Source of the DNA: an uncultured Flavobacteriales bacterium
GTDB lineage: Bacteria; Pseudomonadota; Alphaproteobacteria; UBA8366; CAVOAK01
Direction of reading: 5' to 3'
DNA: 64,000 nucleotides
Assembly (NCBI GenBank): GCA_964419045.1
Contig: CAYQNO010000013.1
Span: 3,808-67,807 of the forward strand
Shown here: piece after piece, positions 33,731-46,927 of the stretch
Numbering within the stretch: position 1 is the stretch's first letter
Layout of the letters: each line of letters starts with the position of its first letter
Notes under the pieces: generated by a model
What the model was told of the DNA's origin: nothing
Databases searched by the model: none
The model's input: only the letters and a program-made list of their open reading frames with translations
Translations under genes and position numbers: made by a program

Positions 33731-34666
33731 ATGGATATACAAGGTTCAAAGAAGGTCATATATGCCGCTTTCGTGGGCAATCTTTTGATTGCAGTAACAA
33801 AACTGGCGGCAGCGGTATTCACCGGTAGTTCTGCCATGGTGAGTGAGGCTGTCCATTCGATCGTTGACACAGTCAACCAGCTTCTACTCTTATATGGCCT
33901 TCGCCGTGCACAGCGTCAACCAGATGAATCCCACCCGTACGGCTACGGTATGGAGCTATATTTCTGGACCTTCGTTGTTGCGATCCTCATCTTTGGGCTT
34001 GGTGCTGGCGTTTCATTTTATGAAGGGATACAGAAACTACTAAAGCCGCATCCAATCTCAAACCCAGCCGTGAATTATATTGTACTAGCTGTAGCCATGA
34101 TTTTTGAAGCAGCAGCCTGGACCATCGCCTTTCGGGAGTTCCGCAGAGTGAAAGGCTCTGACGGATACATAGCTGCAGTTCGGCGAAGTAAAGACCCGGC
34201 CGTGTTTACGGTGTTGTTTGAGGACAGTGCAGCCATGGCGGGTCTTGTGATCGCGTTTGCTGGAATCCTAGCAGGCCAACTCCTCAACATGCCTATCATG
34301 GACGGAATAGCAGCTATCTGTATCGGTGTTATCTTAGCCATTGTTGGTGCGCTACTAGCCTACGAAGCAAAGGGCCTGCTCATAGGAGAAGCGGCTAAAC
34401 CATCAGTTGTGCGGAATATCAGAAAAATTGTCGAGAATGAATCTGGGATTTTAAATCTAAATGAAATGCTCACAATGCATTTTGGTCCCAAGGACGTCCT
34501 GCTCAACCTTAGTATTGATTTTGCAGATAACCTAAGTTCCCGAGATGTGGAGGAGTCAATTTCTCACATGGAACAGCAAATCAAAGAAAAACATCCTGAA
34601 GTAACCCGTGTATTTATTGAAGCACAAGGTAAACGCGCCAGTGATACTGCTAAAACCAACCACTAA
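33731..34666 (+). CDS. Cation diffusion facilitator (ZnT9/FieF-like)
   Basis: SEAVHSIVD, HPYGYG.E.YFW, FEDSAA, DG, C-terminal metallochaperone-like domain. Confidence 0.9.
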   Translation: MDIQGSKKVIYAAFVGNLLIAVTKLAAAVFTGSSAMVSEAVHSIVDTVNQLLLLYGLRRAQRQPDESHPYGYGMELYFWTFVVAILIFGLGAGVSFYEGIQKLLKPHPISNPAVNYIVLAVAMIFEAAAWTIAFREFRRVKGSDGYIAAVRRSKDPAVFTVLFEDSAAMAGLVIAFAGILAGQLLNMPIMDGIAAICIGVILAIVGALLAYEAKGLLIGEAAKPSVVRNIRKIVENESGILNLNEMLTMHFGPKDVLLNLSIDFADNLSSRDVEESISHMEQQIKEKHPEVTRVFIEAQGKRASDTAKTNH

Positions 34667-34930: not shown

Positions 34931-36919
34931 TTGATGGAATATTCGGTGGTTAGAAAAAATTTTATGCATAAGAAAATCGAATTCATTTGTCGCCAATTAG
35001 GTGGCAGTCTTCTAGTAATTATTTTTGGACTTGTTGGCCTGGTAGCAATTACTACGGCCGACGTTCGCGCTTTTGAACTGCAAAATGGAGTATTGTTTTC
35101 CGGATTGCAGCTGGCAAATACTGCGGCAACCACAGATGATGACGAGCTTATCGATGATGATGACCTTATCAGTGACGAAGACGAGGACGAGGAAGCAGAC
35201 GAAGAGGAGGAGTTGGAAGAAGATAATGTGGTAAAGGATGGGTCGGAAGCTCATGAAGCATTGTTTGCCGAAAGTCGCTATCCATCAGCTGGAACCTGCG
35301 GCACTTGCCATCCTAAACATTATCGCGAATGGCGCGTATCTCAACACTCATATTCACAATTAAGTCCTATCTATCTCTCGCTTAATAACAAAATAAACGA
35401 ACTTGCAAACGGTTCAAATGGGGACTTTTGTCTTCGCTGTCATAATCAGGTCGGTGCCAATTTGGGTGAAGACTCATTCGTATCAAATTTAGAACGCCAC
35501 CCAACGTCACGTGAAGGTATTACATGTGTTGTCTGCCACCGTATTAATAAAAGTTACAACAAGGCAAGCGGGCGCCTAGCCTTAGTCGAGGGCGGACTCA
35601 CAGAGCCCATCTTTGGACCTAAGGGGAACGAGGAACTAGCTCGAGTACTCGAAAATACCCACAAATATAGAGTGGTTACAGAGCCCGACGAATCGGGCCG
35701 TCAAATTCATAAGGAGGTAACCCAGTTTACCAATATTTCCCAACCTACATTTTGTGGGACTTGTCATGATGTAACTTTGTTTAACGGTTTCCGGCTGGAA
35801 GAAGCATTTAGTGAATACCGAATGTCACCTGCTGCAAAGCGGGGTGTAACCTGCCAAGACTGTCACATGGGCAAAGTACAGGGTAAGGTTTCTGGATATG
35901 AATTTGGACCAGCAGCCGTCGTAGGTGGTATAGAGACAGAGCCGCGAAAGATTACGGATCACTTTTTCGGAGGGCCCGACTATTCGATCATCCATCCTGG
36001 CATTTTTCCCCATAGTTCAGAAGCGCAACAGATGGCCAGCTTGGGAGAGTGGTTGCAATTCGACGTTGAAGCCGGGTGGGGAACCGACGCGTTCGAAGAC
36101 AATGTTGCGGACGATGCAAGTTTTCCCGAGCGTTGGCAGGCAATAGACGACAGATATGATGCACGTGAAATAATTAACGAACAACTAGAACTCTTGGCGT
36201 GGGCTACGGAGAAACGCCTAGAAGTTTTGCGTAACGGCTATCTTATGACTGACATTGTGACTGAGAAGGCTGATTCTGGAGGCATCAGATTTAAAGTGAA
36301 AGTTGAGAGTGCAACAGACGGCCACAACATACCAACTGGATTTACAGGCGAACGCCTGGTTTGGCTTGATGTGACCGTAACTGACCAAAACGGGACTGTA
36401 ATCATGAGGTCGGGTGACCGAGATCCAAATGGTGACCTTCGTGACGGACATTCAGCGTATGTACATGCTGGGGAAATTGATCTTGATCCTCAACTGTTCA
36501 GTCTCCAGTCTATATTTGTAACGCAGAATGGTCGTGGCGGTGAGATTGAACATGTAATCCCAATTCCTTATCCAGTCATCTCGCTGCCGCGTGTTTTACC
36601 TTCAGTGGCTTCACTGGTCTTTACCGGTGAGCCTGCCACGGAACGTAACCATAAAAAAGGGATAGAGCCACTAGGTCATCGTTGGGCTAAGTATAAAATC
36701 GATGGCAAGAATTTAACTGGAAAGGGACCTTACCGGGCGGTGATTAAGCTAATCCAACAACCGGTACCTATCAACTTGCTTGTGGCAATGCAAAGCGTTG
36801 GCTTTGATTACGGGCTTACTCCCCGCCAGGCAGGTGACGCGGTAATTGCAGGGGCGCAGGTCTTGTGGGAAAAAGAAATTGTATTTGAAGTGGATCAATT
36901 GGCTGAAGCTGCCAAATGA
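34931..36919 (+). CDS. Exported pentaheme c-type cytochrome (c554-like heme core, acidic N-terminal tract, large heme-free C-terminal domain)
   Basis: Five CxxCH: CGTCH, CLRCH, CVVCH, CGTCH, CQDCH; signal peptide ending VRA; HNIPTG motif. Real start may be ATG 34964. Confidence 0.9.
   Translation: MMEYSVVRKNFMHKKIEFICRQLGGSLLVIIFGLVGLVAITTADVRAFELQNGVLFSGLQLANTAATTDDDELIDDDDLISDEDEDEEADEEEELEEDNVVKDGSEAHEALFAESRYPSAGTCGTCHPKHYREWRVSQHSYSQLSPIYLSLNNKINELANGSNGDFCLRCHNQVGANLGEDSFVSNLERHPTSREGITCVVCHRINKSYNKASGRLALVEGGLTEPIFGPKGNEELARVLENTHKYRVVTEPDESGRQIHKEVTQFTNISQPTFCGTCHDVTLFNGFRLEEAFSEYRMSPAAKRGVTCQDCHMGKVQGKVSGYEFGPAAVVGGIETEPRKITDHFFGGPDYSIIHPGIFPHSSEAQQMASLGEWLQFDVEAGWGTDAFEDNVADDASFPERWQAIDDRYDAREIINEQLELLAWATEKRLEVLRNGYLMTDIVTEKADSGGIRFKVKVESATDGHNIPTGFTGERLVWLDVTVTDQNGTVIMRSGDRDPNGDLRDGHSAYVHAGEIDLDPQLFSLQSIFVTQNGRGGEIEHVIPIPYPVISLPRVLPSVASLVFTGEPATERNHKKGIEPLGHRWAKYKIDGKNLTGKGPYRAVIKLIQQPVPINLLVAMQSVGFDYGLTPRQAGDAVIAGAQVLWEKEIVFEVDQLAEAAK
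35135..35224 (+). repeat. Low-complexity Asp/Glu tract (23 of 30 residues acidic)
   Basis: DDDELIDDDDLISDEDEDEEADEEEELEED, encoded by GAT/GAC/GAA/GAG-rich DNA. Confidence 0.9.
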
Positions 36920-36999
36920 TCTTCCTACTAATGTAATTCCACCTTAATCAGACTAGTAGTTAGGACAGGTTATTGAATAAATCAGGGGAGAGTCGCTGT

Positions 37000-38487
37000 A
37001 TGAACACTTCCTTGCGGGATAAGGCCAAATTGCGTGCCCACTCCGCTGCAGTAATATATTCTTTTATGGTTTTCTCCCTGTTTGTGAGTAGCTCTCATGC
37101 CAATGCAGGTAGTGAAAGTAAATGGTATGATTTTTTCTGGCCGCTTGGTGCACCAGTTCACGTTGAAGCCCTCAAGGAAGAATACGTACCATATAAATCA
37201 ACCGGAGAAATACCGTTTCGACCGGGTCTTCTAATAGAATTGGGCGATCCATTTCTTGATACTGGACAACTGGATCCAGGTTTTGAAGTCCCTTTGATCG
37301 AAGCTGTATGGCAACCTCGATTGTGGTCATATTTTATTCATCGCACGACATTACAGACTTTCGACAATGGCGCCGACGGTAGGGATCGAGATACGGAGTG
37401 GGCAAACCGTCTCGATTTTTTTGCAAATTTACAACTAACCGGAACTGAAAAAATTCTCCTTGGTCTTCGTCCAGTGGATAATAATCAACCCGGAAGGTTC
37501 TCCCGAATTGCATTCGATAGTTCGGATAATGGGTTTAAAAATGAGCTTAATTTGGACGTAGAGACTCTATTCTTCGAAGGTGATATAGGAAGTCTCCTCC
37601 CGGTACTCGACCGTGCTGGCATCAAGCCAATAGATTTCGGATTTACTGTTGGTCGACAGCCTTTTACTTTCCAGGAAGGTATCATTATCAACGATACCGT
37701 CGATGCGATTGGTTTTGTTAGGAATAACATCCCCTTTCCTGGAACTTCTAATCTTCGAATTTCAGGTTTGTGGGGTTGGCACCGACTTGACCGGAATGAC
37801 AGAGCTCGCAGCTCTGACGCCAACATGTACGCGCTCTTTACGGCTGTAGATGCGCCCGTTAGCACGTTCAATCTTGATTTAATCTATGTAGATGACAACG
37901 CTAACGACGGTAGTGGTGACGGTTTCTATGTGGGTGCATCCGCCATTCAGCGTATCCGGGCACTGGGTGGGATGAGCACTGCGTTTCGCATTAATAGCTC
38001 TATTGCCCTTGATGATGAGATTGGAGGAAATGTCATTGGTAATGGGACACTGTTAACAGCGGAATTCTCAAAGACACCGCACGGGTCAGATGACATTGCA
38101 TACGTTAACCCATTTCTTAGCATTGGTAACTTCACCCAGGCAGGCCGCGAGCCCATTCTTGGTGGCCCATTAGCTAATACCGGCATACTGTTTGCATCAC
38201 CAAATCTTAGTACCCACGGCGCCGAAATAAACCCATTTACCGACGACGTTTATGGTCTGGCCACCGGCTACCAAGCATTTTGGGATAATAAGAGACGAAA
38301 TCTTATTTTAGAACTAGCGGCTCGTCGTGACTACAGTGGGAATGGGTTTGATTCTTATGGAGCAGGATTCCAGCTGCAACAGGCAGTCGGACAACACTAC
38401 CAGTTACAGTTAGAGGGATTTCATACAATCCAGACAACACGCCAAGATGCCACTGGTGCCCGAGCCGAAATTTTAATTGTATTTTGA
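37000..38487 (+). CDS. Putative outer-membrane beta-barrel (porin-like) protein
   Basis: Signal peptide (SHA cleavage), many amphipathic alternating strands, C-terminal ARAEILIVF ending in Phe (BAM signal), no CxxCH. ATG 37000 has RBS AGGGGAG. Confidence 0.75.
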   Translation: MNTSLRDKAKLRAHSAAVIYSFMVFSLFVSSSHANAGSESKWYDFFWPLGAPVHVEALKEEYVPYKSTGEIPFRPGLLIELGDPFLDTGQLDPGFEVPLIEAVWQPRLWSYFIHRTTLQTFDNGADGRDRDTEWANRLDFFANLQLTGTEKILLGLRPVDNNQPGRFSRIAFDSSDNGFKNELNLDVETLFFEGDIGSLLPVLDRAGIKPIDFGFTVGRQPFTFQEGIIINDTVDAIGFVRNNIPFPGTSNLRISGLWGWHRLDRNDRARSSDANMYALFTAVDAPVSTFNLDLIYVDDNANDGSGDGFYVGASAIQRIRALGGMSTAFRINSSIALDDEIGGNVIGNGTLLTAEFSKTPHGSDDIAYVNPFLSIGNFTQAGREPILGGPLANTGILFASPNLSTHGAEINPFTDDVYGLATGYQAFWDNKRRNLILELAARRDYSGNGFDSYGAGFQLQQAVGQHYQLQLEGFHTIQTTRQDATGARAEILIVF

Positions 38488-38590
38488 TTTGGTATTAACC
38501 TGGATAATGATCCATCCGATCAACCAAATTTGTATAATGCAAACACAAGTGTCCTGCCGCCAAACAAGGTACCTTTAGGTAATAGAGACC

Positions 38591-39877
38591 ATGATGGAGG
38601 CAAATTTCATTTCCACAGCCTTTCAATTTGCCGGTATCATGATTATCGGCGTCGTCTTGATTCAAGTTGTCCTGATGCTTATTTCGTCATTCCGTCATTT
38701 TTCACGTGAGGACGAACGGGAGAAATTAGGGCTCAATACGTTGCGTTACCGGACCGAAGCCCTCCTAGTTCGTAGCAATACTGAGCGGGAACGCGTGGAG
38801 CTTTCCTGGAACGGTTTTCGTAAATTCGAAATACAAAGTATCGTTTCCGAGGCAAAGGACATTAATTCATACTACCTGGTGCCACACGATGGAAAACCTC
38901 TGCCCCCATTTTTGCCAGGCCAATACCTAACATTCCAATTAAAGATTCCAGATTTAGCAAAGCCCCTTATTCGATGTTATTCGCTATCAGACAGTCCAAA
39001 TCACTCGGATCGCTACAGAGTCTCCATAAAAAAAATTCTGTCACCACGTAACGAACCCGATGCCCCACCTGGTCGCTCATCTTCATACTTCCATGAGAGT
39101 CTGAACGTCGGCGATATTCTCGATGTCAAGGCGCCGAGTGGTCATTTTTATCTACAAACTGCAAAAGATAATTCTATCGTGCTAATAGGAGGTGGGATCG
39201 GTATCACGCCTGTACTCAGCATGTTGAACGCGCTTTGCGAATCAGAATCCAAGCGAGAAGTTTGGTTTTTTCTGGGCCTACGAAACGGTTCTGAACACCC
39301 CATGAAGGATCATCTAACGGAGTTAGCTAATGTTCACGAAAATCTCCAATTGAATATTTGCTATAGTAATCCCGAGGAACATGACGTTAAAGGACACGAC
39401 TACCAGCATGCGGAACGAGTCAGTGTTGACTTGTTCAAACGATTACTACCTTCTAATAACTATACATTTTATATCTGTGGACCTCCCCCGATGATGGAAA
39501 TGGTGACTGAGGATTTAAAGTTATGGGGGGTGCCTGAGGATGAAATTCACTTCGAGGCATTTGGCGCAGCGACGGTCAAGCGGACGAAAGTGGTCACAGC
39601 AGAACCCAAGGAAGGAGCGGTTGTTCCGCATATCGTATTTTCTCGGTCAGGAGCTACACTTCCATGGGATGGAAGTGCCGAATCGCTGCTTGACTTTGCA
39701 GAGCGTAACGGAATTGATATCGATTCTGGCTGCAGAGCGGGCAATTGTGGTACTTGCATCACGGCCATAAAATCGGGCGAAATAGAGTATAGTATCGAGC
39801 CTGGAGCTCCACCCGAAGATGGGTCATGTCTGACTTGTATTTCAATACCAAAATCTAATCTAACGTTGGACGCATGA
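38591..39877 (+). CDS. Membrane-anchored FAD/NAD(P)H-binding oxidoreductase with C-terminal [2Fe-2S] ferredoxin (FNR/PDR-type)
   Basis: N-terminal TM (FAGIMIIGVVLIQVVLMLI), RCYSLS, GRSSSY, GGGIGITP, YICGP, FEAFG, CRAGNCGTC...C. Confidence 0.9.
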   Translation: MMEANFISTAFQFAGIMIIGVVLIQVVLMLISSFRHFSREDEREKLGLNTLRYRTEALLVRSNTERERVELSWNGFRKFEIQSIVSEAKDINSYYLVPHDGKPLPPFLPGQYLTFQLKIPDLAKPLIRCYSLSDSPNHSDRYRVSIKKILSPRNEPDAPPGRSSSYFHESLNVGDILDVKAPSGHFYLQTAKDNSIVLIGGGIGITPVLSMLNALCESESKREVWFFLGLRNGSEHPMKDHLTELANVHENLQLNICYSNPEEHDVKGHDYQHAERVSVDLFKRLLPSNNYTFYICGPPPMMEMVTEDLKLWGVPEDEIHFEAFGAATVKRTKVVTAEPKEGAVVPHIVFSRSGATLPWDGSAESLLDFAERNGIDIDSGCRAGNCGTCITAIKSGEIEYSIEPGAPPEDGSCLTCISIPKSNLTLDA

Positions 39878-39983
39878 GTTTACCAAATATCGCCCCGAAG
39901 AAGATGATTTAAACGGATATAATTATTAAGGGGTTAGGCTGTTATTAATACCATAATTACTAGACACGGTAGACCTACGGAGA

Positions 39984-41033
39984 TTGACCGCTATGATAAA
40001 ATTTAATCTGCCAGTCCCAGTTGGCTGCCTCTCAATGATGGCGGCCCTAGCTTTCGGACTCGTTGTTGGGATTTCGGTTTTCCAAGGACAAGTAAATGCC
40101 CAAGAATATCGACTTGATCCGAAAGCAGTTGTGGGGCCTGATGCATGCGGCGAATGCCATAAATCTTCCGTAACAACTTGGAAATTAACGCATCACTCAA
40201 CAACATTTAAGAGCCTACCAAGAAGCAAAAAGGCGAAGGAAATAGCTAACAAACTTGGACTCAAGAGAATCAAGGCAGAAAGCGACTGTTTGACATGCCA
40301 CTTCACAACAGCAGTAAAAAAAGGCAAGGAGGCACCCATTGCCGGCATTACCTGTGAATCGTGTCACGGCGCAGGAAAAGACTGGATAAAATTACACAGT
40401 GATTACGGCGGTAAGGGTGCGACAAAGGATTCAGAATCTGCAGCGCACAAAGCAGAACGTTACGCAAATTCTGAAGCTGCGGGTATGATCAGGCCTTCCC
40501 TTCTCTACGATGTTGCAGCCAATTGTTATGGTTGCCACACAGTGCCAAATGAGGAACTTGTCAACAAGGGTGGGCATCCAGCTGGAAGCAAGTTTGAACT
40601 CGTTGCTTGGACGCAGGGTGAAGTACGCCACAACGTTTGGTATAGCAAAGAAAATAACGAAGCTTCGACTAATCGCAGACGGATGATGTATATCGTAGGT
40701 AAAGCCCTTGATCTTGAATTTGCACTCCGTGGCGTAGGTAAGGCGACAGCAAACAAAACCTATGCAAAATCTATGGCACGGCGGGCAAAATTGGCACGTA
40801 AGGCTATACAAACTATCGCTGCCGTAATTAAAACGCCTGAACTAAATTCGATCGTTATAGCGGCCAGTGAGGCAAAACTGAAGCTCAACAACGACGCTGC
40901 CTTATCGGCCGCGGCTGACAAAATAGCCGCCGCAGCCCGGAAATTTGCAAAAAATTACGATGGTAGCCAATTTATTGGTATCGATGACATGTTACCCGCT
41001 GCCAATAAATATAAGGGTAAAATAGCGCCGTAG
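39984..41033 (+). CDS. Exported tetraheme cytochrome c (c554-like), Lys-rich
   Basis: CGECH, CLTCH, CESCH (GITCESCHG), CYGCH; signal peptide ending VNA. Confidence 0.9.
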   Translation: MTAMIKFNLPVPVGCLSMMAALAFGLVVGISVFQGQVNAQEYRLDPKAVVGPDACGECHKSSVTTWKLTHHSTTFKSLPRSKKAKEIANKLGLKRIKAESDCLTCHFTTAVKKGKEAPIAGITCESCHGAGKDWIKLHSDYGGKGATKDSESAAHKAERYANSEAAGMIRPSLLYDVAANCYGCHTVPNEELVNKGGHPAGSKFELVAWTQGEVRHNVWYSKENNEASTNRRRMMYIVGKALDLEFALRGVGKATANKTYAKSMARRAKLARKAIQTIAAVIKTPELNSIVIAASEAKLKLNNDAALSAAADKIAAAARKFAKNYDGSQFIGIDDMLPAANKYKGKIAP

Positions 41034-41067
41034 TAATAAAATTGCTAGAAACCCAGGGGTACGATAT

Positions 41068-42819
41068 ATGGCAAAATCGGTGCTGATCCAGCAGTCTCGG
41101 CGTTGGGACAATCCATTCAGCGCGGATATGACCGAAGCCGATGTAGATCGAATTTTAGATATCGAGTTATTTCGCAACATGGATGCCGAAAAGTTTCCGG
41201 CATCTGCGTCATTACGAGATATCATACGAAATGACATGTGCATCCGCGAATATCGTAGTGGTGATATTATTATCCGTGAAGATGATTACGATACTTCGGC
41301 ATTCATCGTAATGTCAGGCAGTGTGCGTGCAGTATTGCCGCCAGGGCTAGCCAATGAAGTACTTGGTAGGGCTGATATGCCAAGGAAAGGACTCTGGGAA
41401 GCATTTAAGCAGATCTGGACTAATCCCGAATTTCCGGAGGTTCGTGACCCTTCTCGTTATACTAACGCTCGCGGTACTGGTACACGACAAATCGATTCAG
41501 AAGAAATACATATTTTTCTCCAGAACGTGCCGGATATTTTAGAGAAAAATCGTACCGTACAATTTGGGCCTGGCGAAATGTTCGGTGAAATCGCTGCCCT
41601 TGCTCGTGAGGCGCGGACTGCGACTATCTTTGCTGATGAAGATTCAGTACTCGTCGAAGTTAGACGTCAGGGAATACTCAATATACGACGCCGCGCAGTC
41701 GAGTTTCGCCAATACGTGGATCAGTTATATCGGGAACGTACACTTACAACTCACTTGCAAGAAACGCCAATATTCAACCATCTCAGAGCGGAAATAATTG
41801 AGATGATTGCGGAGAAAACATTATTTGATACTTTTGGGGATTTCTCCTGGTACATAAACTATAAGAAAATGATCGAAGACAGCAGTAGTGAAAGGCTGGC
41901 TCAGGAACCAATTATAGTAGAAGAAGGGCATTACCCTGATGGCCTCTTGATGATCCGAAGCGGATTTGCACGCGTAAGCCGCCGGCTAAACCATGGTCAA
42001 CAGACCGTGCGCTATATTGGTCGCGGTACAGTCTTCGGCTTTGATGAAATTGTGCGGCAATGGCAGAGTGGTAGTAAAGACTCAGAAGGCTATCGCTACT
42101 CCCTACGCTCTGTGGGCTATACTGACGTCCTAAGAGTCCCAACATCGATTATCGAAGAATACGTACTACCCACCATGCCGGAAGATATTCTAACTGCTCA
42201 TTTGGAAACTGAGTTAAATACATACGTAGAAACCAATAAGGATACGTACGAGGAAAACCCGGACGGTGATGATCCTGTAATAGGGACGTCCAAACTCGAA
42301 TTTATCGTTGAGAACCGTTATATTAATGGTACTGCTACGATGCTAATAGATCTTGACCGGTGTGTTCGGTGTGATTCTTGTGTCGAAGCTTGCGCTACTG
42401 GTCATAACAACAATCCGCGATTTCTCAGGCATGGAAGGACTTTCGATCACTTCATGGTGGCTAACGCTTGCATGCACTGTACTGATCCTGTCTGCATGAT
42501 TGGATGTCCAACTGGCGCAATCCACCGTAATGCATTAGGGGGGCAAGTTGTCATAAATGATGATACCTGTATTGGCTGTGCATCATGCGCAAATAATTGC
42601 CCATACGATAATATTAGAATGGTGGAAATTCGAGATTCAAATGGTGAATTTATTCGTGATGAAGCTACCAATTCAACAATCTTAAAAGCCTCTAAATGTG
42701 ATCTTTGTGCTGATCAGCCAGGCGGTCCAGCATGCCAGCGCGCTTGCCCACACGATGCGTTATACCGAGTAAATATGGGCGAGCTGCCATCCATCACTGC
42801 ATTACTGAGCCGACAATGA
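41068..42819 (+). CDS. Cytoplasmic protein with two cNMP-binding domains fused to a DmsB/NrfC-like 4x[4Fe-4S] domain
   Basis: CNBD1 FGEIAALAREARTAT; degenerate CNBD2 (GTVFGFDE); Cys motifs CVRCDSCVEAC, CMHCTDPVCMIGCP, CIGCASCANNCP, KCDLC...PACQRACP; no signal peptide. Confidence 0.9.
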   Translation: MAKSVLIQQSRRWDNPFSADMTEADVDRILDIELFRNMDAEKFPASASLRDIIRNDMCIREYRSGDIIIREDDYDTSAFIVMSGSVRAVLPPGLANEVLGRADMPRKGLWEAFKQIWTNPEFPEVRDPSRYTNARGTGTRQIDSEEIHIFLQNVPDILEKNRTVQFGPGEMFGEIAALAREARTATIFADEDSVLVEVRRQGILNIRRRAVEFRQYVDQLYRERTLTTHLQETPIFNHLRAEIIEMIAEKTLFDTFGDFSWYINYKKMIEDSSSERLAQEPIIVEEGHYPDGLLMIRSGFARVSRRLNHGQQTVRYIGRGTVFGFDEIVRQWQSGSKDSEGYRYSLRSVGYTDVLRVPTSIIEEYVLPTMPEDILTAHLETELNTYVETNKDTYEENPDGDDPVIGTSKLEFIVENRYINGTATMLIDLDRCVRCDSCVEACATGHNNNPRFLRHGRTFDHFMVANACMHCTDPVCMIGCPTGAIHRNALGGQVVINDDTCIGCASCANNCPYDNIRMVEIRDSNGEFIRDEATNSTILKASKCDLCADQPGGPACQRACPHDALYRVNMGELPSITALLSRQ

Positions 42820-43637
42820 ATTTGGCGACCCGTCGCCGACGAAATTTGTTGATTACACTAGCAATTGCGATCGGCTTATATTGTGTACACTGGATTTACA
42901 ACGCAGCTCTTTACAATGCCGCATTCCTCTCAGGATGGGCGCTATTCATCTCGATTCTGTTTCTTACTCTCTACAATTTGCGTAAAAAAATTACTATGCT
43001 ACCAATCGGTTCGAATGCAGCGTGGCTGCAACTACATATCTATCTTGGTTGGCTCGTAATATTTTTATTTGTCCTCCATATTGGATGGCGCGTCCCCGAT
43101 GGGTTAATCGAAGTTACTCTAGCTATCTTGTTCATAGTCGTCGCAGGAACCGGAGTCTTAGGCATTTTACTATCTCGTACCCTACCTAAACGCCTCACTC
43201 GACGAGGCGAAGAAATTATTGTCGAGCGTACGCCAATCTTTCTTGCCAGATTGCGGGAAGAAGCAGAACAGATTGTCATCATTTCGGCCTCAGAAACTGG
43301 CTCAAACACAATTCGTGACTTTTATGCGGAACATCTACATTTCTATTTTAGAAAACCGAGAAATTTTTTGCTACACTTGATCTCCTCAAATCGAGGAGTG
43401 TTCAAATTACAATCTGAATTCAATAATACTGACCGCTACCTCAATGCAGCAGAGCGTGAGCTTTTTGGTAAATTACGCACTCTTGTAGTAAAAAAGGACG
43501 ACATAGATTTTCAATACGCGCTCCAAACCATGCTCAAAGCTTGGCTTTTGATACATATTCCTGTCACCTATGCCCTTATACTGTTGGCAGTGCTACATCT
43601 AGTCATCGTTCACGCATATAGCAGCGGACTTGGATGA
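42816..43637 (+). CDS. Inner-membrane ferric-reductase-like (diheme b) transmembrane protein
   Basis: About 5 TM; His pairs H74-x13-H88 (TM3) and H247-x13-H261 (TM5); ATGA overlaps with both neighbours. ATG 42816 preferred over 42732. Confidence 0.75.
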   Translation: MNLATRRRRNLLITLAIAIGLYCVHWIYNAALYNAAFLSGWALFISILFLTLYNLRKKITMLPIGSNAAWLQLHIYLGWLVIFLFVLHIGWRVPDGLIEVTLAILFIVVAGTGVLGILLSRTLPKRLTRRGEEIIVERTPIFLARLREEAEQIVIISASETGSNTIRDFYAEHLHFYFRKPRNFLLHLISSNRGVFKLQSEFNNTDRYLNAAERELFGKLRTLVVKKDDIDFQYALQTMLKAWLLIHIPVTYALILLAVLHLVIVHAYSSGLG

Positions 43638-45862
43638 CAAACCCACTGCAGCATTTCGATTTCAGGAAAAGTACCTATCAGCGCCCTAATCAGACTTGGG
43701 TCTGTGGCAGAATGGTGGACGGAAACCCCTGTCAGATTGGTCCTGATATCAAGGGGAACTGTCAAGCTCACCACGAATGCCAGCCCAGCAGAAATAAAGA
43801 TAGGTGGCAATGTAATCGATCTGAATCTTCAGGTGGCAAATGCGATGAAGGCCCTATGCCGGACGGCACATGCTGCAGAGCCATCCCACGTTGTCAACCA
43901 ATCAGAAGCTGGCGTGGCCGTATACGTTCTATTAGAAATTGGGTATTCATAGCATCTGTAGGTTTACTTCTTACAGCTCTTAGTAGTCCCTTTACTTCAA
44001 ATTTTTTAAATCCCGGAAATGTTACCTTTCAACATGGTGAAATAGCTGACTGTACCGTGTGCCACTCAGCGCACAATAAGAGCGTATTGAGCTGGCCGCT
44101 GGCAGTTTTTACTCAGTCTACTAAAGATAAGGACAATGAGCTTTGTATTGCTTGTCACGATCTAGGAAAGAATCCTTCTGATCCGCACGGACTACCATCT
44201 GATACTCTCAGCGCTCTCACAAAAACAGCAGACACCAACAACGTCACCGGACAACCACTTCTACTGACCGCAGCATCCTGGGCCAGAGATCTTCCTCTCC
44301 ACGATGATACTGGTATTGCATGTTCAACATGTCACCAAGAACATAACGGTAAAGCATTTGAATTGACGGCAATGTCTAACAAACAGTGCGTAGCGTGCCA
44401 CGTAGTACATTTTTCAGCGTTGTCACGTGGCCACCCAGAATTCACTAATTTTCCGTTTGATCGCCGTACGCGAATTAACTTTGATCACGGGAGTCATCTG
44501 GGAACACATTTTCAAACAACAGAATTCAAGGAACATGCGCCACAGCAATGCACTACATGCCATGTGCCTGAAGACACTGGTCGTAATATGGTGGTCAAAG
44601 AATTCGAAACAATGTGTACTGCCTGTCACGGTGCGCAGATTGTTGGTTTTGGGAGAGCTACCTCGAAGGGGCATAAGATATTTTCTGTACCAGGGCTTGA
44701 CGTTACTGCTCTTGAAGAACGCAACGTACCTATCGGTCAATGGCCTGAAGACGCTGAAGGTGGAATAACGCCCTACATGGACATCCTACTCGCTATGGAT
44801 CAAGAATATAGAATCGCAAAATTGAATCTCCAAGGGCTGGACCTCCTTGACCTCGAGAATGCGAGCGATGAGGAAATTGCGAATATTGAACGCTTAGCTT
44901 GGAGTATAAAGGAATTGTATTTCGATCTTGCAACTAAGGGCATTGCAGCTCTTCAATCACGATTCGAGAATGCTTTGGGCTACGAGTTAGGATCCGACGA
45001 ATTAGCACGACTGACGAACCTGTTACCGATGGATGGAATCATGGCAGCTAAAAACCTTTGGTTCCCCAGTCTATTGGATGAAGTCAGGCGACATCGTGAT
45101 GGTGAAATAGTTGCTATTCAAAATATTAGTCAGATAGATAGTTTTGGTTCTTTATCCAACGTTGTTAAAGGCTCAAGTAAAAATGGTCAGAATATAGGTC
45201 TGAGCGATGATGAAATAGGAGATGATGAAATAGGAGATGATGATATTGAAGAAGAGGAAGTTGGAGACGATGAAGATACAAATATAAAATCAGTCATAAA
45301 CGAAGATTGGGCAAGCGCGGGGGGCTGGTATCGAGAGGGTTTTAGTCTGCGCTATCGACCTTCAGGACATGCAGACACCTTCATTAGGAGTTGGCTTGAT
45401 ATATCGGGGCAAGCAACAACAAATTTGAGCAAAGATTCAACAGTTGAAATATTCGAAAATCTGTCAAATGCTAAATCACCCGGCATATGTTCAAAATGCC
45501 ATAGCGTAGATGTTATTGGAACTGGCCTGTACAAGGTGAATTGGGAGAGTAAACGGCGAATTCCAAACCAGCAGACGTTTACAGCGTTTTCACATGTTAG
45601 TCACTTCACACTTTTGGACGAGCGTGGCTGCCTAACCTGTCATAGCCTAAATCTGGAGGCTGAGTTTGCTGATGGTTACAAGAACTCCGACCCAATGACA
45701 TTCTCAAGTAACTTCAATCCCGTTGAGCGGACCACCTGCGCAGCATGTCATACCGCAGCAGAAGCTGGAGACAATTGCGTAACCTGCCATAACTATCATA
45801 TTGGTATATTTCCACCTGCACAGACTAACACACACAAAATGATGAAACAGGCCCAGAACTAA
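43634..45862 (+). CDS. Membrane-anchored decaheme cytochrome c with duplicated Cys-rich N-terminal module
   Basis: Ten CxxCH (CTVCH, CIACH, CSTCH, CVACH, CTTCH, CTACH; then CSKCH, CLTCH, CAACH, CVTCH) in a 6+4 arrangement; TM near residues 103-121 preceded by an Arg-rich segment. Confidence 0.9.
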   Translation: MTNPLQHFDFRKSTYQRPNQTWVCGRMVDGNPCQIGPDIKGNCQAHHECQPSRNKDRWQCNRSESSGGKCDEGPMPDGTCCRAIPRCQPIRSWRGRIRSIRNWVFIASVGLLLTALSSPFTSNFLNPGNVTFQHGEIADCTVCHSAHNKSVLSWPLAVFTQSTKDKDNELCIACHDLGKNPSDPHGLPSDTLSALTKTADTNNVTGQPLLLTAASWARDLPLHDDTGIACSTCHQEHNGKAFELTAMSNKQCVACHVVHFSALSRGHPEFTNFPFDRRTRINFDHGSHLGTHFQTTEFKEHAPQQCTTCHVPEDTGRNMVVKEFETMCTACHGAQIVGFGRATSKGHKIFSVPGLDVTALEERNVPIGQWPEDAEGGITPYMDILLAMDQEYRIAKLNLQGLDLLDLENASDEEIANIERLAWSIKELYFDLATKGIAALQSRFENALGYELGSDELARLTNLLPMDGIMAAKNLWFPSLLDEVRRHRDGEIVAIQNISQIDSFGSLSNVVKGSSKNGQNIGLSDDEIGDDEIGDDDIEEEEVGDDEDTNIKSVINEDWASAGGWYREGFSLRYRPSGHADTFIRSWLDISGQATTNLSKDSTVEIFENLSNAKSPGICSKCHSVDVIGTGLYKVNWESKRRIPNQQTFTAFSHVSHFTLLDERGCLTCHSLNLEAEFADGYKNSDPMTFSSNFNPVERTTCAACHTAAEAGDNCVTCHNYHIGIFPPAQTNTHKMMKQAQN
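45206..45277 (+). repeat. 15-bp tandem repeat (GATGATGAAATAGGA x2 plus a degenerate third copy) encoding an acidic linker
   Basis: Protein DDEIG-DDEIG-DDDIEEEEVGDDED between heme 6 and heme 7. Confidence 0.9.
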
Positions 45863-45898: not shown

Positions 45899-46390
45899 TT
45901 ACTTACCAATTTTACCCTCTTTTTTACCCCAAGTTTCTAGGCGAACCGGTTCATCCGGATTACGACGAAATATGATGGGCGCTCGACGTTTTGCTATACG
46001 CCATCCCTCGGAGGTGCGTTCCAGCGCCGCATAACAGTCGACCAAACGATGTGGGCCCTCAAATGGTAACGGCCCATCTACCTTCTCAAATTCTGCGTCA
46101 GCTGTGTAATAAAGCGTATGATATTCGTTTAATTCTGCATGGTCCTCATCAATAACGTTAACAACAGTATTCGATAACACATGACGAATAGTTCCTTCGC
46201 CAAGGGCCGCCTGGAGTCCTTTCAATAATTCTTCACGACCATTTAGTTTCACACCATGAGACAGCCAATCGATGTCTTCAGTAAACAGGTTTGCTGCACT
46301 CTCGAAATCTCTATGATCCACGTAGTCGTAGTACTGACGCATGGTTTTTTCGCAATCCCACTCAATTGCACGTTCCTGCTCACGTTTCAT
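45899..46390 (-). CDS. SnoaL/NTF2-like family protein (paralogue 1)
   Basis: YYDYVD.RDF....LFT.D, RHVLSN, GWRIAKR. Confidence 0.85.
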   Translation of the reverse strand: MKREQERAIEWDCEKTMRQYYDYVDHRDFESAANLFTEDIDWLSHGVKLNGREELLKGLQAALGEGTIRHVLSNTVVNVIDEDHAELNEYHTLYYTADAEFEKVDGPLPFEGPHRLVDCYAALERTSEGWRIAKRRAPIIFRRNPDEPVRLETWGKKEGKIGK

Positions 46391-46435: not shown

Positions 46436-46927
46436 TTATTCTGATGTTCTACCTTCACTTTTACCCCATGTCTCAAGCCTCACCGGTTCTTCTGGATCAC
46501 GTCGGAATACAAGCAATGAGCGCCGCTTGGAAATACGCCATCCATCTGGCGTACGTGTGAGCTCAGCATAACTGTCGAGAAGCCTGTGAGGGCCCTCCAT
46601 TGCCAATGGATCATCAGCTTCTTGGTATTCTGCATCCGCAGTGTAATAAAGGGTATTGTAAGAACGACAAATAGCGTGATCCTTATCTGAAACAGTTACT
46701 ACTGAATTGGTCAGGATATGACGGACTGTTCCTTCACCTAGTGATGCGTAAAGGCCCTTCAGGAGTTCATCGCGACCATCGAGTTTTACTCCGTGCGAAA
46801 GCCAGTCGACATCTTTAGTAAAAAGATCTACCGCTTTTTCAAATTCACGCCTATCTACATAATAATAGTAACGACGCATAATTTTCTGACATTCCCACTC
46901 GATGGCGCGTTCCTGTTCCCGATCCAT
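46436..46927 (-). CDS. SnoaL/NTF2-like family protein (paralogue 2)
   Basis: Same length (163 aa) and ungapped alignment with the neighbour; roughly two-thirds identical by eye. Confidence 0.85.
   Translation of the reverse strand: MDREQERAIEWECQKIMRRYYYYVDRREFEKAVDLFTKDVDWLSHGVKLDGRDELLKGLYASLGEGTVRHILTNSVVTVSDKDHAICRSYNTLYYTADAEYQEADDPLAMEGPHRLLDSYAELTRTPDGWRISKRRSLLVFRRDPEEPVRLETWGKSEGRTSE

Follow-up and report, generated by a model that had tools for sequence, protein, structure and literature searches.

A complete ptdABCDEFG (PCC4 subgroup II) cluster on an alphaproteobacterial contig as a candidate NAD(P)H-fed envelope redox chain

The systems closest to the locus reported here have been described twice. 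PCC4 was defined by He et al. 2017 (Front Microbiol 8:1584, PMC5566968) as a porin, three multiheme cytochromes (4, 5 and 10 hemes) and a protein of the inner membrane. The latter has five transmembrane (TM) helices, a W-x3-H-x13-H motif on TM3 and TM5, which defines the inner-membrane protein of PCC3 and PCC4, and SGxxG on TM4; subgroup II, found in marine Zeta-, Gamma- and Alphaproteobacteria and Planctomycetes, has an Fe-S gene upstream of the inner-membrane-protein gene (PMC5566968). In 2023 the cluster ptdABCDEFG was named by Elbon, Stewart & Glass (bioRxiv 10.1101/2023.11.21.568154) in marine Alphaproteobacteria (order UBA11136), Gammaproteobacteria, Nitrospirales and Planctomycetes; its parts are penta-, tetra- and decaheme cytochromes, a porin, an FAD/NAD(P) oxidoreductase, a cyclic-nucleotide-binding domain (CNBD) protein with 4Fe-4S and a ferric-reductase-like membrane protein. 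For the Alphaproteobacteria of oxygen-deficient zones (ODZs) which carry it, the same authors proposed NADH supply from formate, and they stated that the function "remains completely unknown" (bioRxiv 10.1101/2023.11.21.568154). Transcription of the cluster in an ODZ has been reported. Both accounts rest on bioinformatics (PMC5566968; bioRxiv 10.1101/2023.11.21.568154). The locus analysed here, positions 34931-45862 of a 64,000-nucleotide (nt) stretch of contig CAYQNO010000013.1 (the window, to which all coordinates refer), is a complete ptdABCDEFG, that is PCC4 subgroup II, cluster, and was thus known and named earlier.

The seven ptd/PCC4-II genes are all present in the window, co-oriented and in the published order, and the inner-membrane protein PtdF has five TM helices (in its model), W-x3-H-x13-H on TM3 and TM5 and invariant G113 and G116; it is because these motifs and the gene order and content match that the locus is assigned to the named cluster. 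Proteins, order, marine habitat and host phyla being the same, it is a further member without essential difference. A preliminary description, made from the sequence alone, had not recognised a characterised system here, which remains correct as regards characterisation, though the cluster already had two names. To the published accounts the present analysis adds four [4Fe-4S] sites in PtdE instead of two, a conserved membrane anchor in PtdC, a division into modules AB and CDEFG, a barrel with ~18-20 strands and a link between PtdA and the enzyme MccSep. As a whole the cluster is read as a two-module, outward envelope redox chain, fed by NAD(P)H without quinones and ending at PtdA and PtdB, a reading judged probable, if only just.

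The seven open reading frames, all on the + strand, together fill the locus:

34931..36919, + strand, ptdA: exported pentaheme cytochrome with a C-terminal Ig-like domain (possible alternative start, ATG 34934)
36973..38487, + strand, ptdB: outer-membrane beta-barrel with a conserved N-terminal extension (possible alternative start, ATG 37000)
38591..39877, + strand, ptdC: N-terminal TM helix, FAD/NAD(P)H module and plant-type [2Fe-2S] domain
39984..41033, + strand, ptdD: exported basic tetraheme cytochrome
41068..42819, + strand, ptdE: cytoplasmic protein with two CNBDs and a four-cluster [4Fe-4S] ferredoxin domain
42816..43637, + strand, ptdF: inner-membrane protein with five TM helices, putative di-heme b wire
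43634..45862, + strand, ptdG: cytoplasmic Cys-rich N-terminus, one TM helix and periplasmic decaheme domain

The close spacing and common orientation first described were borne out, with intergenic distances of 53, 103, 106, 34, -4 and -4 nt in order, and the ATGA overlaps said to join the last three genes were read directly in the sequence at ptdE/ptdF (42816) and ptdF/ptdG (43634). The count of 19 c-hemes was likewise reproduced (five CXXCH motifs in PtdA, four in PtdD and ten in PtdG). Domain calls from Pfam and NCBIfam scans of the window proteins, predicted topology and invariant ligands fit the compartment which had been assigned to each protein, and fit a path from NAD(P)H through FAD, [2Fe-2S], 4x[4Fe-4S] and two b-hemes to the c-hemes. 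Of the three cytochromes described as membrane-anchored, only the decaheme PtdG is clearly anchored, by a TM helix (residues ~104-122), the N-termini of the tetraheme and pentaheme looking like cleavable Sec signals. Matches to consensus promoters and terminators within the cluster were at or below chance.

Electrons would enter at PtdC, which comprises FAD_binding_6, NAD_binding_1 and Fer2 domains (Pfam), the last with the [2Fe-2S] motif C381-x4-C-x2-C...C, behind an N-terminal TM helix (residues 13-31). In every PtdC ortholog a basic stretch follows the N-terminal hydrophobic helix, and from this order the flavin domain should face the cytoplasm. The flavin module matches the reductase module of flavohemoglobin Hmp (NCBIfam, E 9e-75), and the closest solved relatives are flavohemoglobin (3OZU/1CQX, E 2.5e-51) and phthalate dioxygenase reductase (2PIA, E 3e-25), the latter sharing with PtdC the order of FNR and [2Fe-2S] domains. 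Tethered to the inner membrane, PtdC would oxidise NAD(P)H and pass electrons from FAD to its [2Fe-2S] cluster.

PtdE, which has neither a TM helix nor a signal peptide, combines cNMP_binding domains with a four-cluster ferredoxin domain of the DmsB/HydN/AegA type, and its best PDB match is HycB3 of HDCR (7QV7, E 4e-16), a cytoplasmic HycB-type polyferredoxin. Two of its elements bear on the proposed chain:

42340..42786, + strand: four Cys groups of PtdE (C432, C468, C501 and C544 series) in a HycB/HydN/DmsB-type ferredoxin domain
41581..41634, + strand: phosphate-binding cassette of the first domain, CNBD1, FGEIAALAREARTATIFA (PtdE residues 172-189)

The groups read C432-x2-C-x2-C-x3-C, C468-x2-C-x4-C-x3-C, C501-x2-C-x2-C-x3-C and C544-x2-C-x8-C-x3-C, and all 16 of their Cys are invariant among the aligned orthologs; on these motifs PtdE is predicted to hold four [4Fe-4S] clusters, as against two in the earlier account (bioRxiv 10.1101/2023.11.21.568154). 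CNBD1 is interrupted by an insertion and CNBD2 is degenerate. The CNBD1 cassette of the window protein, FGEIAALAREARTAT, contains the Gly-Glu...Arg-Thr of the CRP/PKA type, with G173 and E174 invariant among orthologs and R183 present in the window protein. In the cytoplasm PtdE would relay electrons via its four clusters, with the two CNBDs as an allosteric gate, and its sensor domains probably gate the electron route. The window genome (2.28 Mb, 98% complete) encodes eight class III nucleotidyl cyclase domains; with the intact cassette, these make the control by cAMP or cGMP first suggested plausible in this organism, though not throughout the family (see below). Four CNBD proteins besides PtdE were also found, a cyclic nucleotide (cNMP) signalling set unusually rich for a small genome of 2.28 Mb. 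PtdE of Planctomycetota is at least 880 amino acids long (L016:9755-12397; L numbers denote surveyed loci); between its CNBD region and its ferredoxin domain it has an FHA domain, which is of a phosphothreonine-binding type and would give this carrier a further kind of regulatory input.

The membrane would be crossed by PtdF, on two b-hemes held by paired His residues on TM3 and TM5:

43023..43079, + strand: PtdF TM3 motif W70-x3-H74-x13-H88, His invariant in orthologs
43542..43598, + strand: PtdF TM5 motif W243-x3-H247-x13-H261, His invariant in orthologs

The AlphaFold2 model of PtdF (pLDDT 87) has five TM helices and a cytoplasmic helical insert; TM3 and TM5 run parallel and carry the four invariant His, a geometry which would place one b-heme near each membrane face. 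H74, H88, H247, H261, G113 and G116 are invariant, and TM4 bears an S/T-G-x-x-G motif. PtdF thus has His pairs on TM3 and TM5 like those of NOX and ferric reductases (12-13 residues between), and the weak Pfam matches of 19 PtdF orthologs were to heme-b families only, namely DUF4405 (11/19), Ni_hydr_CYTB (7/19) and Ferric_reduct (6/19, best E 0.009), the window PtdF itself being borderline for DUF4405. No ferric-reductase-domain (PF01794), MsrQ or cytochrome b561 fold could be recognised with confidence, Foldseek giving no PDB match, which leaves the His pattern and the weak Pfam matches. No quinone would be needed, as in a NOX split into subunits or in the Fre/MsrQ pair of E. coli.

Anchored beside PtdF, PtdG would receive the electrons on its ten c-hemes. 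Its ten CXXCH motifs (residues 140, 171, 230, 252, 306, 328, 619, 666, 702 and 715), in paired-CXXCH and c7-type modules (Pfam/NCBIfam), are all invariant in 13 orthologs, and sequence searches of the PDB found no relative of the protein. The N-terminus is Cys-rich and is followed by an Arg-rich stretch and then the TM helix; because the Arg-rich stretch precedes the helix, the N-terminus should be cytoplasmic and the ten hemes periplasmic.

43697..43900, + strand: Cys-rich N-terminal module(s) of PtdG (residues 22-89), with C24, C33, C43 and C87 invariant in 13 orthologs

This region consists of one or two W-x-C-G...C...GP...G-x-C...C-x-P modules, the gammaproteobacterial clade lacking the second, and has no Pfam match; it could be a Zn or Fe-S site which docks PtdE or PtdF. 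PtdD would then act as a soluble shuttle onward from PtdG. It is a basic protein (isoelectric point 9.5, net charge +20) with CXXCH motifs at residues 55, 102, 124 and 181, a c554-like N-terminal half (cytochrome c554 1BVB, E 2.5e-8) and an Ala/Lys-rich C-terminal half; its N-terminus, like that of PtdA, looks like a cleavable Sec signal peptide (e.g. VNA/QE in PtdD). PtdG also has an acidic insertion (residues ~524-548, about 45200-45280). In Alpha- and Gammaproteobacteria both PtdA and PtdG bear poly-acidic tracts with a repeat-like pattern (DDxL / DDEIG), and PtdG of Acidobacteriota has one too; the PtdA and PtdG orthologs of Verrucomicrobiota and Planctomycetota lack them. The composition of these tracts, taken with the basic PtdD, suggests electrostatic docking or cation binding.

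The terminal module would consist of PtdA, with five c-hemes and an Ig-like domain, and the PtdB barrel at the outer membrane. PtdA is made up of a signal peptide, an acidic tract, five hemes with a c554/c7-type multiheme match (Pfam/NCBIfam; CXXCH at residues 123, 167, 199, 275 and 308) and a conserved C-terminal domain of ~350 residues:

35132..35224, + strand: poly-acidic tract of PtdA (~residues 68-98) between signal peptide and heme domain; 24 D/E in residues 60-105
36317..36343, + strand: PtdA motif D-G-H-N-I-P-T-G-F (residues 463-471)

Four of the CXXCH motifs are fully invariant in orthologs; the first deviates only in L009 (CKTYH), its second Cys being nearly invariant. A single-sequence search with PtdA returned one match, the low-potential pentaheme c552 of Thermochromatium tepidum (5ZE8), while a profile of 11 orthologs matched c552 (5ZE8, E 6e-13) and MccSep (9WT8, E 1.5e-3), both domains aligning. 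Work of 2025 identified MccSep (GSU2936/7, ExtKL) as a polysulfide/selenite reductase of the periplasm; the protein has an Ig-like stem and a cap with five hemes, and its active site comprises a His/Cys-ligated heme 2 (C239) and a selenocysteine (U325) on a loop of the Ig domain (bioRxiv 10.1101/2025.11.18.688581). Its G-H-S-I-P-D-G-U-P aligns with the invariant G-H-N-x-P-T-G-F-D of PtdA; H465 is common to PtdA, c552 and MccSep, and an invariant F471 stands at the position of U325. The motif DGHNxPTGF and the pocket residues F287, R288, L289, E290, A292, F293 and E295 are likewise invariant in PtdA, and its single Cys outside the CXXCH motifs lies in the signal region. On this alignment PtdA is a branch, lacking selenocysteine and Cys, of a superfamily of pentaheme plus Ig-like proteins which contains enzymes. 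The Geobacter ext cluster encoding MccSep, which is fed from the menaquinone side, was long taken for a porin-cytochrome conduit. As the MccSep kin is a periplasmic enzyme, proximity to a porin gene does not by itself make a cytochrome a wire through the barrel, and with MccSep as its nearest characterised relative PtdA suggests a catalytic endpoint over a surface wire. Two more specific assignments of PtdA were rejected: an MccSep-type enzyme, there being no selenocysteine or Cys and no heme-ligating Cys, and an NrfA pentaheme nitrite reductase, the five motifs being CXXCH with no CXXCK and the Cytochrom_C552 Pfam match (E 0.007) below the cut-off. The match of PtdA to the DmsE-family model is weak (33 bits, with the cut-off at 192). 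In most PtdA orthologs the signal peptide is of the plain Sec type; the ortholog of L005 (Phycisphaeraceae, L005:4061-5980) has an N-terminus, ...LFAVVAC/TGTG, which resembles a lipoprotein signal, so that, going by the signal sequences, the localisation of PtdA may differ between lineages.

The AlphaFold2 model of PtdB is an all-beta barrel of ~18-20 strands (residues ~104-503), and Foldseek comparison of the 504-residue protein with the PDB gave as best matches the MOMP of C. jejuni, chitoporin, OccAB/OccK/OprD, AlgE and ScrY (E 7e-12 to 1e-8). These best matches are 18-strand substrate/solute channels, and MtrB was not among the top 50. The earlier placement of PtdB in the outer membrane therefore agrees with both the model, a membrane barrel, and its neighbours, which are outer-membrane channels. 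None of the porin Pfam families, MtrB_PioB (PF11854) included, matched any of 13 PtdB orthologs, and an MtrB-like sheath was not retained as the default reading of PtdB, on strand number, Foldseek neighbours and the missing MtrB_PioB match. The further claim that electrons pass through the barrel is weakened: such passage is unproven, because PtdB resembles substrate channels (OprD/Occ, chitoporin, AlgE), unlike the 26-strand MtrB, and has no MtrB_PioB match. For the last step PtdA as terminal reductase, with PtdB as its channel or docking site, is favoured over PtdB as an MtrB-like sheath, and is itself a reasonable candidate which falls a little short of an even chance; its substrate would be a small solute entering via PtdB, or the reaction would take place at the periplasmic mouth of PtdB.

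A terminal reductase in the periplasm, served by a channel of its own, is no less likely than a wire across the outer membrane, the arrangement preferred by Elbon et al., in which PtdB would sheathe part of a cytochrome or dock PtdA outside, with NAD(P)H-derived electrons passing to Fe(III), Mn(IV), O2 (giving superoxide) or iodate. A porin-cytochrome conduit of this kind is considered unlikely, although it accounts for several observations: the barrel gene always adjoins a multiheme gene, the 19 c-hemes include an anchored decaheme long enough for much of the periplasm, the acidic tracts of PtdA and PtdG could bind cations, and the lipoprotein-like signal of one PtdA ortholog (L005) recalls the surface cytochrome MtrC. 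Fused cytochrome-porins such as Cyc2, in which a small barrel hosts a heme domain, would also favour it. What tells against such a conduit is the ~18-20 strands of the barrel, its solute-channel matches, with MtrB outside the top 50 and no MtrB_PioB Pfam match, the absence from the cluster of a quinol dehydrogenase and of an MtrA or MtrC ortholog, the periplasmic nature of the nearest characterised relative of PtdA and the prediction that all three PCC4 cytochromes are periplasmic (PMC5566968).

We infer the order of the carriers from compartment and cofactor type, which set the sequence, and the path from cytoplasm to periplasm is well founded. An outward direction is proposed because the relatives of PtdC all oxidise NAD(P)H and because outward flow is energetically favoured. 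Electrons moving outward are aided by the inside-negative membrane potential and run downhill from -320 mV, while for an inward route to NAD(P)+ both terms are unfavourable. A chain which spends both NAD(P)H and membrane potential must be switched, and this would explain the CNBDs and the FHA domain of Planctomycetota. A quinone-independent feed would make sense for bacteria which have only ubiquinone and reduce low-potential acceptors.

The opposite direction was put forward by He et al. 2017 (PMC5566968): a donor outside the cell or in the periplasm, for example Fe(II) or Mn(II), would be oxidised at PtdA/PtdB and its electrons would pass through the cytochromes and PtdF to quinones or NAD(P)+. 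PCC4 does occur in Zetaproteobacteria which oxidise iron, in Hyphomicrobium from an enrichment which oxidised pyrite and in drinking-water-filter bacteria, the filter being of a type used for Fe(II)/Mn(II) removal (PMC5566968), and di-heme b proteins of the Ni_hydr_CYTB type, to which 7/19 PtdF orthologs show weak matches, exchange electrons with quinones. Inward flow is nevertheless held to be very unlikely, as most of the hosts found belong to marine heterotroph-like or planktonic lineages rather than to iron oxidisers, a strictly conserved cytoplasmic NAD(P)H flavoprotein and four-cluster ferredoxin would have no explanation if quinone were the sink, and electrons moving from periplasm to cytoplasm would oppose the membrane potential, the step from Fe(II) to NAD(P)+ being strongly uphill.

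The preliminary description would have failed had the seven genes not occurred together elsewhere; they do, the set being syntenic or co-occurring in at least six phyla, and its conservation as a whole across phyla excludes a chance assembly. One genome per species was scanned, giving 20 loci, against which all seven proteins gave full-length tblastn matches (30-86% identity) in conserved order. The full set was found in the same order in Gammaproteobacteria, Alphaproteobacteria, Phycisphaerae, Limisphaerales/Verrucomicrobiales and Planctomycetota, while in Opitutales the order is C-E-F-G-A-B-D and in some Alphaproteobacteria that of the two gene groups is also altered. Two Acidobacteriota loci hold ptdC-G only, full-length ptdA lying elsewhere in the same genomes (E 1e-256 and 1e-249) and ptdB directly after it in both, despite the separate contig from ptdCDEFG; in one Planctomycetota genome, too, the ptdAB and ptdC-G groups are on different contigs. 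Two modules, AB and C(D)EFG, are accordingly recognised, because A and B stay paired and both groups reside in the same genome when unlinked. That these might be unrelated neighbours, ptdC-G encoding a redox complex of the inner membrane and ptdAB a cytochrome/porin pair which draws its electrons from elsewhere, is extremely unlikely: the separate contigs in two Acidobacteriota and one Planctomycetota genomes and the different group order in Opitutales and some Alphaproteobacteria would allow it, but unlinked groups still share genomes, the groups are adjacent in most lineages across phyla and PtdD, the likely shuttle, travels with either group.

Relatives of PtdE number more than 3000 in a large protein collection and, among the 120 matches listed, all have cNMP_binding and Fer4 Pfam domains. 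PtdE was found in 13/301 genomes drawn evenly from the class of the window (~4%, 12 genera), a patchy spread which is typical of an accessory, transferable module. PtdA lay on the same contig as PtdE in 10/12 other positive genomes of the class, the two exceptions being a 74%-complete genome and one with a partial PtdE match only. In the flanks of 21 loci no accessory gene (cyclase, ccm, regulator or substrate-related enzyme) recurred, one clade excepted. This is a gammaproteobacterial clade with two extra conserved genes directly 3' of ptdG:

L009:14505-16565, L010:12575-14477, L011:14832-16696 and L019:14747-16637: extra gene pair after ptdG

The first encodes a FecR-domain protein with a Pro-rich tail; the product of the second, ~309 amino acids long and ending ...SYFF in L009, has no Pfam match and is possibly a small barrel of the outer membrane.

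Metagenomes of marine plankton and of seawater represent the window well, and two metatranscriptome runs contained exact contigs of 151-182 nt in ptdA, ptdB, ptdD and the 3' end of ptdG. These lend slight support to expression beyond ptdAB, which could not be assessed in the earlier study (bioRxiv 10.1101/2023.11.21.568154). One exact metatranscriptome contig covers 45815-45959, from the end of ptdG towards the genes downstream.

Several points weigh against the outward, quinone-independent chain ending in a PtdA reductase. At the outer membrane, 19 c-hemes are many for a periplasmic reductase, and the decaheme could span the periplasm, as would fit a surface wire; the PtdB model is of moderate confidence (pLDDT 68, pTM 0.66). 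PtdA lacks the selenocysteine and the heme-ligating Cys of MccSep, whose C239/C240 align to invariant L289/E290, and its catalysis is not proven, because it has enough invariant His for five bis-His hemes. PtdF could have a quinone site, so that independence from quinones is not proven either, and it cannot be shown to be a ferric-reductase-domain protein, an hhalign comparison with MsrQ of E. coli giving 3% probability and a Foldseek search of the PDB no match. Of the four orthologs in the gammaproteobacterial clade, three (L009, L011 and L019) have another residue in place of the CNBD1 cassette Arg, which L010 retains, and because of this loss cNMP binding is not universal in the PtdE family. 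The transcript evidence is thin and too sparse for a single transcript, and DNA carry-over is possible. A literature search for later functional work on Ptd or PCC4 found none, and no experiment on any Ptd or PCC4 protein was found.

The genes around the cluster in the window (a cation-diffusion-facilitator (CDF) transporter, a SnoaL-like pair, a peptidase and an aldo-keto reductase) are unrelated to it, the nearest on either side being:

33731-34666, + strand: Cation_efflux (CDF) gene, 264 nt upstream of ptdA
45899-46390 and 46436-46927, - strand: two tandem SnoaL-like (NTF2-fold) genes, convergent on the end of ptdG

The Cation_efflux gene is not kept beside ptd in other loci.

The cluster is widespread and common in the ocean, and its architecture is unusual. 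Finding it here is a rediscovery, the value of which lies in sharper predictions that can be tested: a division into two modules, a barrel of small size and a PtdA which is kin to MccSep but has no selenocysteine or Cys. If the outward, NAD(P)H-fed reading is true, Ptd would be a novel class of redox machine in the bacterial envelope, which moves low-potential electrons from the cytoplasm past the quinones under second-messenger control, and a candidate for ocean redox fluxes that lack an explanation. The boldest extension, which we regard as quite unlikely, is that Ptd works as an NAD(P)H:acceptor oxidoreductase gated by a second messenger and independent of quinones, much like a split NOX joined to 19 c-hemes, behind a dark bacterial redox flux in the ocean. 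Marine aerobes with only ubiquinone would then deliver low-potential electrons to the outer membrane or the cell surface, and the candidate fluxes would be extracellular superoxide, the reduction of iodate, Fe(III) or Mn, and the turnover of sulfur and nitrogen oxyanions in ODZs.

Set beside characterised systems, Ptd resembles MtrCAB, PioAB and MtoAB in having a barrel gene beside multiheme genes, a decaheme and an envelope-spanning logic. It differs in its much smaller barrel, outside the MtrB_PioB family (MtrB and PioB have ~26-28 strands), in lacking an MtrA/DmsE- or MtrC-type protein (PtdG has no DmsE-family match), in carrying a sensor domain on an electron carrier and in a proposed input by flavoprotein, ferredoxin and cytochrome b rather than by a quinol dehydrogenase such as CymA or ImoA; no NapC/NirT protein was found in the cluster by the Pfam/NCBIfam scan. 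With NOX/FRE enzymes and the Fre-MsrQ pair, its nearest functional analogies for the membrane step, it shares an FNR-type NAD(P)H flavoprotein which would feed a membrane protein with TM3/TM5 His pairs ~13 residues apart, and the proposed outward movement of electrons without quinones, NOX-type enzymes also being tightly regulated. In Ptd, however, flavoprotein, 4x[4Fe-4S] relay and b-heme protein are separate polypeptides, PtdF has five TM helices where NOX/FRE proteins have six, without matching those proteins significantly in sequence or fold, and the acceptor would be 19 c-hemes and not O2, Fe(III) or MsrP directly. PtdA is like MccSep and c552 (9WT8, 5ZE8) in its five-heme cap, Ig-like stem and G-H-x-x-P-x-G motif, and the gene cluster of MccSep, as that of PtdA, holds a porin-like gene; it departs from MccSep in having Phe at the selenocysteine/Cys site, Leu/Glu at the heme-ligating Cys, ~200 extra residues and an acidic N-terminal tract. 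Lastly, as in NarHI and FdnHI, the closest analogy for docking of this sort, a four-cluster protein of the DmsB/NarH class (PtdE) is paired with a putative membrane di-heme b protein which would take electrons across the bilayer, the Fe-S protein being cytoplasmic as is NarH, whereas in Ptd there is no molybdoenzyme partner, the four-cluster protein bears CNBDs and the periplasmic partner is a decaheme.

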